Assembly: GCF_035084215.1 (NCBI RefSeq)
Contig: NC_090340.1
Location: 4,526,001-4,590,000, forward strand
Length of the DNA stretch: 64,000 bases
DNA from: Heptranchias perlo
Lineage: Eukaryota
Reading direction: 5' to 3'
Every line of letters starts with the position of its first letter. Within the stretch, counting starts at the first letter, position 1. This document shows, in pieces, positions 45,973 through 50,310 of the stretch. The position numbers were made by a program, and so were the translations under genes. Under the pieces are notes generated by a model. That model saw nothing but the letters and a program-made list of their open reading frames with translations. It had not been told where the DNA came from and did not search any database.

Positions 45973-48825
45973 GTAGCTGTTTATTTATTTTTCACTCAGT
46001 GTCAATGTAAACAATGAATTCGTTATTATTTACATACATTCAGTTACATTTTCTCTTTTCTTGAAGTTTTTTTGTCATCTAACTAATTATATTTTTATAT
46101 AGTTCCCGCCGATACTTCGATGGAAGTGACTCAACTTCCTGAAAGCGCGAACGCACTCAAAGGTACAAACGTGACCTTTCATTGTTCAATTCCATTCTTT
46201 CAAGATGACTCACTGGTGAGCATCGACTGGAGGAAAGAGGGTAAATATGAATACCTGAGTACAGCAGGCGATAGCAGAAAAGTGTCCGGTTTCAGGAGCA
46301 AATTCAGCGGCTTTCTTCGGATTGTCAACGTGAGTTTCTCGGACGCTGGAATATATTATTGCGCTGTCAAACAAAAGGGAAATACAACTGAAAGCCGCGT
46401 TGGATCAAATTTAATTGTATGGGGTAAGTATAAAAATTGCAAAGAATGAGCGATGCAATTCTGACTCATAATGTTCGTACAAATTGAACAAATGTCGCAG
46501 AACGATTGCAGTGATTATATTTTACGCGACGGAATATTGGTGTTTAAAAATAATAACAACGGAAGTTAATTAATTTTAGACGTACATATTTTAATCATGT
46601 AACAGGGTAAAAATCAATATATTCTACCTAGCATTGCAGCGTTTCATTAAAATGTTGTGATTATAAAAAACTGCAGAAAACGTTCTTAAATTAAAACCAG
46701 AATGAACGGACTAAATTTGATATTACAGGTAAAAATCCATTTGTCACATAATGATATCAGGGCTGCAGTGTTATATCTATCCAGCTCAGCGGGAATAAAC
46801 ATAGCTATTAATTTATTTGATACTTTGCTCCGCGTTTGAAAGCCTGAACCTGCAGTAAATTCAATTCCTCCCAGTTTTTTATTCCAAGTGGGATTGCTTC
46901 ACCCATCGATAGCGATGTCTTCTCTCCAATCCAAATTTGAGCAAAGCGAGATAATAAATCAAAACAATTTTGCAAATAAAGGTTACTCCGATCTGCAATA
47001 CAATGATTGTTGTTAGAAGTTGAGATGTTCCAGCCAGAAAACAAGGATCGGCTGATATGCCTTTCAAGCGTGAAATTGTCCATTACTTTCTTCTTGTCCC
47101 CCCCCCCCCCCGCCTATATTCGGCTTTCGGTTCATTAGAATTCACAGCATGTTCATTACTTCCATACGTGCACTGAAAAAGTGGTAAGTGGTAAGCAAAC
47201 AACAACACTATTTCGCAAAGCACAAAAATACAATTAAGCCCTAATACCGATTTAAGCTATGACAGTCTGTCTATTAAGAGTGATATTATTCTGTTTATGT
47301 TTTATGTTCTATTTTATAGTACCTCCAACTCCATTGAAAACTTTCTCCAAAGTACCCGGAAGGGATTCTTCTGCGTCCCTGACACTTGCGTGTGAAGCGT
47401 TTGCATTTTACCCTGGGGATGTAACGTTCGGCTGGTATAAAGATGGTATCGAAGTGACAACCGGGATACATGTCATTAAACACCGAAAATCAGAGGGATT
47501 GTATGACGCTTCCAGCTATTTGGAAGAGACAGAGCCTGCTCAGAGCGGGACTATTTATATCTGTCTGGTTTCTCACATCACCTTCGAGACACCGGCCATT
47601 GTCACACACATTGTTACATATTCTGACGCAGGTAAAGAGGCCAACATTATAACCGAGATATTCAATTGTCGTTCAAACCTCATTGATCATCAAGGACACC
47701 CTTAACGTTAATTCATAACACAATATTCTAAACTTGTTGCACGGAAAATGACTTCAATATATAAATCAAAAGTTCTAAATCAATGATTAGGTTCATCATG
47801 GATTTATTTGAACGTTTTAGTAATTACTATATCAATGTTCGCAGATTGCGATAGAGAAGTGAAAAAAGAAGAATTAAGCTTACGAATGTATTAAATTTCC
47901 TTCTCTTATTCAATGATAAACATTCAGTTTTGTTTGCTCCGCTTCTGATTTTATTTTACGTGTTACTCTTTTTTCCAAGCGCGGAGCAGCCTTTATTCTC
48001 AGATTACGGTGGAGTTAGTTGTAACTTTTATTGCTGGGCAAGAGTGACAGCGAATCCGCAGCCCGTTTTAGAGCTCGCTCGATTTTATTTTCCATTGACT
48101 TCAATTGCCCCCCACCCCCAACATAAAAGTTAAAATTACTCCAGTGTGTACACTGGTCGCTCCACATCGTGGCCTCTCCTGAGTGCCACCCTGTTCAATA
48201 TGACTATTGCAACAAGCAAACCATCGCCGACAAGAATCGATGTCTAATCATCCCACAGCATAATTGGTTTTATCATGTTCACCCCATTGGACCTTTCATT
48301 AAAACTGTGCTGTTAATAAATCCCCGCTACAGTGTTGGTGCAGAGCAGTTTTAGGGAACACCGTCCTGCCTACAAGGAAATAGGGTCTGATCTCCTGAGC
48401 TCCTGACAACCGCAGAGTGATTCCAATTAATGCACAGCACGAAGTCACAGCTATCGCGCCAAGAGGGTTCATGTAAAATGCAGCTTTATTCCACTGGCTA
48501 CAAAACTGACAATGATGTAACTGACCAACAAAAACATTCTTGTTTCGGAAATCATGGTTTGAAAATAGAACAACTGAGTTGGTAAGGTCGTTAAAACATG
48601 GCTGCTCAACTATTACACTGTGGGGTTACTGAAAACACAATCTTTCATCTTGCAAATTGAGTGGACAATATTCTCCACTATGTTTGATATCTTTTTTTTA
48701 ATATTAACTTCGTAGGCGGTCAAAACTTCATTTATCTGCTGATTTCTGGATGCATTGGTTATGGTCTGTTATGTCTACTGCTCTTTGTCCTAATTTGGAA
48801 GCGACACCAATTCAAGGAGAAGTAA
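45918..48825 (+). CDS. Non-rearranging Ig-superfamily receptor (leader-V-C1-TM, short tail), 265 aa; NKp30/SIRP/VJ-C1-like
   Basis: Exons 45918-45972, 46103-46423, 47320-47631 and 48716-48825 have canonical GT-AG sites and all phase-1 joins. The 798-nt spliced frame is open. Cys/Trp/Cys are intact in both Ig domains. Confidence 0.9.
46103..46423 (+). CDS. Exon 2, V-set Ig domain with germline-joined G strand
   Basis: VTQLP..GTNVTFHC..W..DAGIYYC..VGSNLIVW|gtaagt; N-glycosylation sequons NVT, NVS and NTT. Confidence 0.95.
47320..47631 (+). CDS. Exon 3, C1-set Ig domain
   Basis: LTLACEAFAFYPGDVTFGWYKDG..GLYDASSYL..YICLVSH; tag| and |gtaaag boundaries. Confidence 0.95.
48011..48142. mobile_element. 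MITE in intron 3 of the receptor gene
   Basis: Imperfect TIRs ggagttagttgtaacttttattgctggg / ccccaacataaaagttaaaattactcc. Confidence 0.6.
48716..48825 (+). CDS. Exon 4, transmembrane segment and 8-aa basic tail
   Basis: tag|GGQNFIYLLISGCIGYGLLCLLLFVLIWKRHQFKEK*; TAA at 48823-25 is followed after 2 nt by a strong donor gtaagc (48828). Confidence 0.88.
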
Positions 48826-48940
48826 AGGTAAGCACCCCAAATTCTGAAAATTTCCATGTTAGATGTTCGATTTTAATACAGCCGTTCTTGAAACAATAAT
48901 GCGTCACGAGTTGCAACTTGTTTGTACCTTAAAAATGCAG

Positions 48941-48976
48941 GAACCTGTGGCAGCATCAGGACACCAAGACTGATTG
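48941..48976 (+). other. Candidate 36-nt exon 5 (formerly cytoplasmic coding, now untranslated)
   Basis: tttgtaccttaaaaatgcag|gaacc...gattg|gtatga. Confidence 0.45.
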
Positions 48977-49033
48977 GTATGACAATTGGCTCCACATCAT
49001 AGAGTGAAATTAAAGCTCAGAAAAATAGAAGAC

Positions 49034-49093
49034 TATATCCATATTCCCTCTCTCTTTATATATATATATAGAGAGAGAGGGAATATGGATATA
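49034..49093. repeat. 60-bp near-perfect palindrome centred on (TA)7
   Basis: tatatccatattccctctctct-t-(ta)7-g-agagagagggaatatggatata; a single mismatch. Confidence 0.92.
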
Positions 49094-49837
49094 TGGATAT
49101 ATATATGTGTTCAATATACATTCTAATGACTTTAATCACCATCATTTGCGGTCTGTGTTTGGATAGGTATCATTCTTTTATGAATTGGTGTCAAATCCAA
49201 GGAACCGTTCACCATCACAGGGTCTCGGTTCAGACCTTTTTGATTAATCGAATCGAGTACATTATGACATGACATCGGTCGCGCCGTTAAATTTACGCGA
49301 CAGCTAACTGAAAACAATTCAGAATCACTGGCTGGATATTAAGGATTTAATTGTAAACATTGGAATCTGTGCAGATCTTGGGGCTCTAAGTATGACAGTG
49401 CGATTTTCTAGTCAAATTAGAAGATTTAACACTTACTTTCTGCAAAGATTTAATTCGATTCAATGCATCATGCAATCGTAGTTTACAAAATAGGGGATGC
49501 AGAATAGGAAGGTCTTAGAGGTGGGAACGGAGCAATCCAGAATAATGGCGTCCTCTCCGGAAGCGTGTGTCCATTGCGTAGCAAGCGTCCTTTTACATCT
49601 ATCAAGTTTTCATATTAATGACATAGTATCACTTCTCATGTGTGGATTGTGAAACTATTGCTTTACTAATAAACATTAGTTATTGAACATCAACTAAATA
49701 GAGTAAAAGGTAATTTATAGCAGGTGTATTTTTTTTGGTTCCAAAGAGGCAATTGATTGAAGACGTTAAACTTACGAGTTGTGCTTCATTTCTATCTCCA
49801 TTCATTCCAACCACGATATTAAATTATCTTTCTTCAG

Positions 49838-50310
49838 GCTGCACAAGGAGCAGAGGAGAAGAAGATTGATTAAGCCGCTCTACATTTTACTGGCTCGGTG
49901 AAATCTGCAAACAATATCATCAGTTTGAGAAGCAGCACATTTTAATATTGGATAAAATAACCGTAGTTGTCAGCGCCCTTACGAAGTATGGAAGTCTCGG
50001 ATCAACGATAAAATTACACAGATTTCCCTGCAGAAAAAAAGTTGGTCCAATTTAGTTCCCCACTGATGGCGCTTCACTTTAAGTCTGCTGTAAATTTCAA
50101 TTATTGACCGAAAGCTTGGGGTTCGATTTCTGACATAGAACTTGATAGTATAATTCATGGAGTTGCAAAGTTACCATTTCAAAACAATCATGGCTTTATC
50201 ATCACAATAATGAATGCCATTGTTCTAAACCTTGCAGTCAATAGTATAATGTTTGGATTCATTTTGTAAGTGTTCATTAACTTTTAATAAAGTCTAATTG
50301 CAGAAGAGAA
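49838..50310 (+). other. Candidate terminal exon with fossil ITIM-like sequence and 3' UTR
   Basis: Strong acceptor tatctttcttcag|; the phase-0 frame reads AAQGAEEKKID*AALHF...STF*YWIK*. Confidence 0.55.
50286..50291 (+). terminator. Candidate polyadenylation signal
   Basis: First AATAAA after the terminal-exon acceptor, followed by a T-rich tract at ~50330-50355. Confidence 0.45.

Follow-up and report, generated by a model that had tools for sequence, protein, structure and literature searches.

A tailless V-C1 receptor gene of the shark Heptranchias perlo and the decayed remnant of an ITIM exon in its 3′ untranslated region

Known receptor systems

Loss of the ITIM is known from paired receptor families, and the best-studied cases, KIR and Ly49, are young and show fast turnover. 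Their short-tailed members derive from inhibitory homologues. According to the sections cited of PMC2213150, in KIR this came about when the membrane-proximal ITIM acquired a stop, a charged transmembrane (TM) residue was gained, and the short-tailed KIRs of hominoids are dated to 13.5–18 Ma. SIRP-γ has a V-set plus C1-set ectodomain, an uncharged TM and a tail of 4 residues without ITIM; it has ITIM-bearing family members and is described, in the part of the SIRP account drawn on here, as not binding DAP12 and as having a decoy/adhesion role (PMC12975943).

Multigene families of Ig-type immune receptors in fishes include the NITRs of teleosts and the MDIRs of skate. NITRs consist of a V domain and then an I-type domain. 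MDIRs comprise activating and inhibitory forms, as stated in the portion cited of PMC3031540. UrIg, which is counted like NKp30 and PRARP among the VJ genes, has an unsplit VJ exon followed by a C1 exon (PMC10751288, in the passages used).

The gene described here lies in a 64-kb stretch of Heptranchias perlo DNA, the whole of which is termed the window, and shares properties with each of these systems. The likeness to SIRP-γ covers ectodomain, TM and tail, and SIRP-α is among the top solved-structure matches (2wng, E 2.7e-13), but the shark receptor has one C1 domain (one V and one C1 exon) where SIRP has two, and its tailless clade is likely to be more than 200 million years old. Unlike KIR and Ly49 it has no charged TM residue, its ectodomain is of another type and it has persisted far longer. 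Shark UrIg2 is the best solved-structure match (9dmx, E 4.9e-20), and it too has an unsplit VJ exon before a C1 exon; the UrIg2 chain is V-C1-C2-C3, whereas the shark receptor is V-C1-TM with ITIM-tailed paralogues. The tailless clade further differs from the non-rearranging VJ-C1 genes in having no G-x-G J motif. MDIRs are CD300/TREM-like, unlike the shark receptor. Membership of the NITRs, with which the original prediction had drawn a comparison, was rejected: the second domain is C1-set, at 43.8 bits (cut-off 21).

Gene structure and transcripts

The receptor gene has five exons, for leader, V, C1 and TM plus a terminal exon (Table 1), and the protein from its spliced model matches P0012, a RefSeq entry of 265 aa from Heptranchias perlo, at every residue. 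Judged by sequence, it belongs to a chondrichthyan V-C1-TM receptor family with ITIM-bearing members: V-set, C1-set and TM are present, identity to ITIM-tailed members is 40–55%, the protein falls inside the family tree, and the terminal exon is homologous, over its first 24 codons and as a fossil, to the last ITIM exon of the family. RefSeq names for the family are inconsistent and include Ig lambda-like, SIRP-like, tapasin-related, MHC II-like and B7-H6-like. The RefSeq name of the protein itself, immunoglobulin light chain, was rejected; a light chain has rearranging V-J segments and no TM, and here a single VJ exon is spliced to the C1 and TM exons.

Table 1. Features of the receptor gene, in window positions
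Feature	Position	Strand	Evidence
Leader exon, coding part from ATG, phase-1 donor	45918..45972	+	Spliced model = P0012; X5 loose end before V exon matches leader exon end
V-set exon with joined J-like strand, without first Gly of the family's G-x-G	46103..46423	+	Pfam V-set 38.1 bits; joint to C1 in X5–X7; J motif count
C1-set exon	47320..47631	+	Pfam C1-set 43.8 bits, E 3.2e-11; joints both sides in contigs
Transmembrane exon: uncharged TM containing Cys242 and Cys249, then ~9 tail residues, the stop, 2 nt and the donor	48716..48827	+	RNA-like contig, 0 differences over 48726–48825
Stop codon TAA	48823..48825	+	Alignment: same position in Heterodontus, Mustelus, S. canicula, Heptranchias paralogue
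Candidate mini-exon of the original prediction	48941..48976	+	Not seen used; without homology to family tail exons
Terminal exon, now 3′ UTR; AATAAA at 50286; exact 3′ end inferred	49838..50310	+	TM-exon joint in X5–X7; contig cover to at least 50220
Fossil ITIM exon, matching the last exon of tailed family members over 24 codons in phase 0	49838..49909	+	Codon-decay profile 31–34 bits, 0/50 shuffles; TAA 49871–49873 on ITIM tyrosine column
Distal 'ITSM' of the original prediction, decayed to background	49934..49960	+	16/16 registers negative; spacing approximately that of the family's distal Tyr motif

Transcript evidence comes from contigs of four of the eight runs listed, all from one sample; X5, X6 and X7 are RNA-like (type inferred) and X4 is DNA. 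Contigs from the RNA-like runs support four of four junctions. In all three of these runs 48827 is spliced directly to 49838, stop included. This joint (mapped 48825 to 49836, GT..AG, cut +2) is missing from the DNA run, and thus the acceptor predicted at 49837 is in use. Record 17 of X6 and record 27 of X7 (49855–50220, both fossil TAAs included) each have 0 other letters and 0 gaps, the former across the end of the TM exon, and the stop is therefore not an assembly error, the proviso of the original prediction.

A 36-nt exon had been proposed between the TM and terminal exons. Contigs of X5–X7, which can show the presence of a joint and not its absence, have none into or out of this segment in the one sample; of the five acceptors, that of the segment is the weakest, with 11/20 pyrimidines, and comparison with the first tail exon of the family gives a negative score. 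Use of the segment as an exon is not supported.

The stop codon stands where it was first seen, with AG and then the gt of the donor at 48828 after it. The excess of one base relative to the phase-1 junction of tailed relatives, also part of the original prediction, is real. Its position is ambiguous, as 16 different single-base removals reopen the frame and several score alike. It should be pointed out that no single-base removal would by itself bring back the ITIM, since it would leave the observed splice joining in phase 1 to a phase-0 exon. Since the 36-nt exon is not seen used, the last junction is 2 nt downstream of the stop and not 38 nt as calculated for two small exons. Escape from NMD, as predicted, should follow from this more simply than from the original calculation, under a distance rule presumed to extend to sharks.

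Remnant of the ITIM exon

Past the acceptor, frame 0 reads AAQGAEEKKID*AALHFTGSVKSA...STF*YWIK*. A codon-decay profile was built from 21 tailed relatives and both strands of the window were scanned, with 50 shuffles. Columns 1–24 of the profile score 31–34 bits at exactly 49838 in four of four settings; the second-best position in the window has 6–14 bits, and shuffled maxima are 15–19 bits. The best site in 64 kb is therefore the acceptor in use, in phase 0; codons 3–4 read QG and a stop falls on the Tyr column. Half of the 24 fossil residues (12/24) are identical to those of paralogue P0008. An HMM search of the six frames of the window reports the fossil as its sole domain (iE 0.0063 and, when the 21 tails were used, a weaker 0.22). 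The full 41-codon profile ranks the site first in only two of four settings, and tblastn with whole proteins matches it weakly (E 0.09).

By these comparisons the proximal block and the terminal ITIM exon of the family are homologous. The predicted ITIM with tyrosine replaced by TAA holds, and with it descent from an ITIM-bearing inhibitory receptor followed by tail loss. A first-ITIM profile also matches, at 49844 with 27.9 bits, because the tail blocks of the family are repeats of one another. Of the two, the terminal exon is the more likely source, given the QG start and the exon boundary. The second motif proposed, a distal ITSM-like TxYxxI, has not survived: columns 31–41 are negative in all 16 registers tried, the proposed register being the least bad at −4.0 bits, and 1/17 residues match the family consensus.

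The best-fitting decay is approximately 0.15 substitutions per site, at which a stop at the Tyr column has a chance of about 5%; some 14% of stops in the 24 codons are expected at that column. Selection for the Tyr-to-stop change was rejected as unneeded under such neutral decay.

The tailless clade

The same end codon is found in gene models of a Heptranchias paralogue (P0002), Heterodontus (P0003), Mustelus (P0028) and Scyliorhinus canicula (P0183). Thus the stop, with orthologue end points taken from annotated gene models, is shared by models from four species and three orders, counting Heptranchias. Models of S. torazame extend further, P0182 by 2 residues and P0179 by 28, and neither has an ITIM. 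The tailless proteins form one clade, whose SH-aLRT support is 99 in the V+C1 tree and 98 in the C1+TM tree and whose branching order resembles that of the species, and their ectodomains are open and 49–66% identical across orders. The sister group on V+C1 includes ITIM-tailed proteins (support 96), and the C1+TM tree, with 71, leaves the sister relation unresolved; both trees come from quick searches and have no real outgroup. No batoid or chimaera members of the clade were found in the searches, and several other shark orders also gave none; one relative search merged sequences at 50% identity, so that missing orders are not evidence of absence.

The tailless subfamily, on this comparative evidence, is old and conserved and not an early pseudogene. 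Tail loss likely took place once, before the split of the main shark lineages, and likely more than 200 million years ago. Orthologues ending at the same codon had been named beforehand as counting against the original prediction. What they remove is the recency of the lesion; the fossil stands, because tailed paralogues show the origin of the exon.

No Lys, Arg, Asp or Glu is present in the TM of six of six clade proteins, and an activating paired receptor of the KIR-S/SIRP-β type, which has a charged TM residue, was rejected. Residues C242, I243, G244, L247, C249 and W257-x-R-x-Q-x-K are invariant in 6/6 clade sequences, and Tyr245 is mostly kept. Identity over TM plus tail exceeds that of C1 in five of five clade pairs (67–83% versus 49–66%; Fisher p 0.06–0.51, none significant), and in only one of four sister-clade pairs, by 2 points. 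This conservation hints that the TM has a partner and is more than a passive anchor. A homodimer prediction for the receptor, with a score of 0.02 and a mark of 0.32, gives no indication either way. The J-like G-x-G is kept in 53 of 63 scorable family records, and all ten without it belong to the tailless clade, a pattern read as a derived loss and not as exclusion from the family.

History and possible functions

With a probability of about 0.9, the history of the gene may be reconstructed as follows. The stop would have come from a frameshift of one base where the TM exon ends, and one or two middle tail exons would have been lost. The terminal exon would have been retained as the source of the 3′ UTR and the poly(A) signal, with its sequence decaying roughly neutrally. 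With the middle exons gone and the stop next to the last junction, the mRNA would therefore escape NMD.

Two other accounts of the stop and the fossil were considered. A chance reading of UTR as a 'fossil ITIM', in a subfamily that never had a tail, would fit the background score of the distal half and the intron 48828–49837, in which no relics of the two middle tail exons rise above shuffles (for four profiles, the best score in the intron is equalled or exceeded by 37, 249, 26 and 57 of 300 shuffles). It is scarcely credible against a proximal score about twice that of shuffled sequence, one that starts at an independently shown acceptor and in the phase of the family. Nearly as improbable is a recent loss-of-function allele, early pseudogene or assembly error. 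The cluster does yield pseudogenes, as two neighbouring V-C1 copies of the family in the window have decayed and contain stops, but here the stop lies in RNA-type contigs without differences and is common to models of four species in three orders with open ectodomains; the pseudogene class was thus rejected.

As for function, there is perhaps slightly better than an even chance that the tailless V-C1-TM receptor is a non-signalling decoy or adhesion member beside inhibitory paralogues, by analogy with SIRP-γ in its relation to SIRP-α. Ligand would be bound through the V domain; no SHP-1/2 would be recruited as there is no ITIM, and no DAP12/FcR-γ-type adaptor as there is no charged TM residue. 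The protein would therefore serve in cell adhesion or compete for ligand with its inhibitory siblings. Under the same history it might instead signal via a membrane partner, as a co-receptor or activating member, the TM face of Cys242, Gly244, Cys249 and mostly Tyr245 serving to dimerise the receptor or to couple it to a signalling chain in place of the usual charged residue. The invariant TM residues and the excess of TM-plus-tail identity in clade pairs point this way, as does ITIM loss in KIR and Ly49, which went with a switch to activation in the part cited of PMC2213150. But the charged TM residue that defines the KIR, Ly49 and SIRP-β switch is absent, and the conservation excess is not significant. 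Juxtamembrane Cys residues, moreover, are possible palmitoylation sites. Signalling via a partner is thus possible but tentative. It is doubtful that the protein has become a counter-receptor, serving as ligand to family members with an ITIM or to other receptors, like B7-H6, CD47 and CD200, for which a tail is unneeded. G-x-G is missing only in the tailless clade, which suggests that the V-domain G strand changed along with the tail, and the nearest Atlas cluster by features carries the automatic name NCR3LG1/B7-H6; but the top Atlas clusters are tied at 0.96 and all names are automatic, the tree position is inside a receptor family, and a binding role is putative.

A broader and rather unlikely proposal is that the subfamily changed three things together, dropping both the ITIM tail and the antigen-receptor-type G-x-G bulge while a TM face with two cysteines became fixed, to give a charge-free co-/counter-receptor that pairs with inhibitory siblings and has been kept for more than 200 million years.

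Significance

The gene marks out a large V-C1-TM-ITIM family of sharks, rays and chimaeras. No description of this family was found in the literature searched; the J Immunol papers on VJ-C1 genes, outside that search, may have one. The tailless state appears to have persisted from the Triassic or earlier, an age that implies a stable role, and in the 3′ UTR the defunct ITIM exon is still legible. If the three changes did produce a co-/counter-receptor, a comparison of the still-spliced ITIM exon between sharks would show in what order the stop, the exon loss that rescued the mRNA from NMD and the loss of the tyrosine arose, and the subfamily would represent one of the oldest traceable switches from inhibitory to non-inhibitory receptor.

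Gene structure and identity

Exons 1–4 of the receptor gene give a 265-aa translation identical to P0012, the database record of its product (XP_067853489.1/XP_067853495.1, Heptranchias perlo). The RefSeq name 'immunoglobulin lambda-1 light chain-like' is misleading, because V and J lie in a single germline exon and a TM segment is present. Relatives of P0012 are V-C1-TM proteins in sharks, rays and chimaera, and the tails of many carry 2–5 tyrosine motifs. RefSeq isoform X2 (P0001, 231 aa) is missing 34 residues, the first V-domain cysteine among them; an acceptor is present at 46205, inside the V exon. 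The identical protein stands under two accessions, and the initial pieces of another model, P0175, match window positions 38053–37877, 21450–21361 and 20590–20486 before a V-C1 gene outside the window. These observations suggest that the chromosome holds a second, nearly identical copy of this stretch at another place, or that the model extends past the window.

Exons of the receptor gene and decayed V-C1 copies
Feature	Positions	Strand	Remarks
Leader exon	45918–45972	+	AG/GT edges; translates to part of P0012
V-set exon	46103–46423	+	AG/GT edges; Pfam V-set 38.1 bits
C1-set exon	47320–47631	+	AG/GT edges; Pfam C1-set 43.8 bits
TM exon	48716–48827	+	AG/GT edges; carries stop
Last exon	from 49838	+	AG/GT edge; starts at used acceptor
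Decayed V-C1 copy 1	30097–29777, 29183–28875	-	One in-frame stop in V, one in C1
Decayed V-C1 copy 2	14256–13945, 13239–12982	-	Two stops in V, frameshift in C1

The fossil ITIM exon

The original prediction held that the last exon preserves an ITIM whose tyrosine became a TAA. For a terminal-exon profile, a pattern chose terminal segments in 21 of 24 tailed relatives, the three non-matching ones being left out; the proximal Tyr is invariant by construction in this set, the spacing was not preset in this way, yet 20 of the 21 segments align without gaps. The profile was turned into codons, aged by neutral substitution and scanned over both strands of the 64-kb window. In the four settings used, columns 1–24 score 34.3, 32.3, 31.4 and 30.8 bits, and the top site each time is 49838, the base at which the spliced last exon begins. 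Runner-up sites reach 6–14 bits, and none of 50 shuffled windows attains the score (maxima 15–19 bits). With plain HMMs the 49838 region is the sole domain (iE 0.0063 with 6 tails, 0.22 with 21). The TAA at 49871–49873, codon 12 of the last exon, falls on the Tyr column, and the proximal fossil ITIM is thus real. The best-fitting decay of the exon is ~0.15 substitutions per site, at which the chance of a Tyr>stop change is ~5%.

The distal ITSM-like motif also proposed lies at background level: each of 16 registers gives columns 31–41 a negative score, the proposed one being the least bad (-4.0 bits), and the 41-column profile takes rank 1 in only two of four settings. A profile search of the last intron (48828–49837) turned up no remnant of the middle tail exons known from the family. 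The ancestor of the tailless clade possibly possessed just two tail exons, since some family members seem to lack the middle ITIM exon (P0060, P0115, P0181, P0037 and P0051 have shorter tails, apparently without it).

Transcripts and the TM-exon stop

The RNA check covered four of eight runs, all from a single sample: X5–X7, guessed to be RNA, and X4, which is DNA. All three RNA-like runs have contigs with the V–C1, C1–TM and TM–49838 joints, and X4 has none of these; the predicted splice to the acceptor at 49837 is thus used. Contig records 17 of X6 (48726–48825) and 27 of X7 (49855–50220) each show 0 differences and 0 gaps, and therefore the transcript carries the stop (TAA, 48823–48825) as well as the two fossil TAAs. 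The predicted stop is real; as to a possible assembly indel at 48811–48827, X6 record 17 is clean to 48825, and none occurs there among 12 indel rows listed of 53. No joint enters or leaves the proposed 36-nt exon at 48941–48976, as judged from contigs, from which rare forms get dropped. Under the 50–55-nt rule, NMD of the tailless receptor mRNA would not be expected, because the stop sits 2 nt upstream of the last junction; the predicted escape stands, with the distance reckoned without the small exon. The last intron also contains a short, almost perfect inverted repeat built around (TA)n/(GA)n runs (49041–49087), where reads seem cut.

A second joint in the RNA-like contigs, at about half depth, has one differing base after the stop, and X6 record 18 has 9 differences across the TM exon. 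We infer that both most likely stem from the 88%-identical paralogue P0002, spliced likewise.

By boundaries taken from protein models, the TM exon of tailed relatives seems to end in a phase-1 Gly, 7 codons past a K-R pair; the window exon has 7 codons plus 2 bases after the pair. The proposed one-base frameshift fits this codon count, but its site is ambiguous.

Age of the tail loss

Models ending at the window protein's codon are P0002 (Heptranchias), P0003 (Heterodontus), P0028 (Mustelus) and P0183 (Scyliorhinus canicula), so that by gene models the exact end is shared by 5/6 genes and 4/5 species. In Scyliorhinus torazame the conserved stop is seemingly lost, yet the models, longer by 2 (P0182) and 28 residues (P0179), finish without an ITIM. 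The six genes form one clade in quick searches with midpoint rooting (SH-aLRT 99 on V+C1, 48 rows; 98 on C1+TM, 26 rows), branching in the order Heptranchias, Heterodontus, carcharhiniforms. The V+C1 tree gives a sister group (96) with ITIM-tailed proteins of Heterodontus and Amblyraja among its members; the C1+TM tree leaves this link unsettled. A preprint dates the hexanchiform split to ~278–288 Ma (HPD 233–344), and notes Triassic estimates for the traditional tree (10.64898/2026.02.13.705779). The tail loss is therefore likely >200 million years old.

The original prediction allowed for an early pseudogene. This is very unlikely, as the end codon is common to models of other sharks and the loss is likely old. 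True family pseudogenes differ: the two minus-strand copies have V stops and C1 lesions. Profile scans found no TM or ITIM exon to go with copy 1. Downstream of that copy, a possible short terminal exon with a clean acceptor is seen by eye (23355–23260, minus). Non-LTR retrotransposon reverse transcriptase ORF fragments, also by eye, are at 465–1900, 17875–19900, 25107–26261, 26729–28024, 31441–31890, 35048–35810, 37148–38281 and 59063–59728.

Possible function and known analogues

Neither phosphatase recruitment nor the usual DAP12/FcR-gamma coupling would be expected of the tailless receptor, because its translated part contains no ITIM and charged residues are absent from all six clade TMs. 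The closest working analogue would be SIRP-gamma, which is described as having a 4-residue tail, not binding DAP12, and serving alongside SIRP-alpha as a decoy or in adhesion (PMC12975943). By this analogy, a decoy or adhesion receptor acting beside inhibitory relatives has a probability of roughly 0.55. The SIRP architecture is not shared, the shark protein having one C1 only.

The J-strand G-x-G, a motif described as making a bulge common to VJ-type receptors and as influencing CD28-family ligand affinity (PMC11599192), is kept in 53 of 63 scorable family records; the ten without it are all from the clade, isoforms counted separately. Cys242 and Cys249 of the TM are invariant in 6/6 clade proteins, and TM plus tail conservation exceeds that of C1 in 5/5 clade pairs, though never significantly (p 0.06–0.51). 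These two derived features speak for a clade with changes of its own beyond the truncation. They also leave room for a protein that acts through a membrane partner, which is unlikely, and for one that is itself a ligand for other receptors, which is more doubtful still.

The shark receptor has other partial parallels. Short-tailed KIR have a similar origin, a stop having entered the proximal ITIM 13.5–18 Ma, but carry the charged TM residue that the shark receptor lacks (PMC2213150). Shark UrIg has the VJ-C1 layout in common with it (PMC10751288). UrIg is also the best solved-structure match (E 4.9e-20). NITR identity is ruled out on domain layout, the receptor's second domain being C1-set, whereas NITRs are V plus I-type; on such fish receptor families see PMC3031540. 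No published description of the shark V-C1-TM family or its tailless branch was found in the literature searched, and an earlier one is possible. The receptor's tail loss is real, old and explicable, and the fossil is the record of an ancient specialisation, not of a declining gene.
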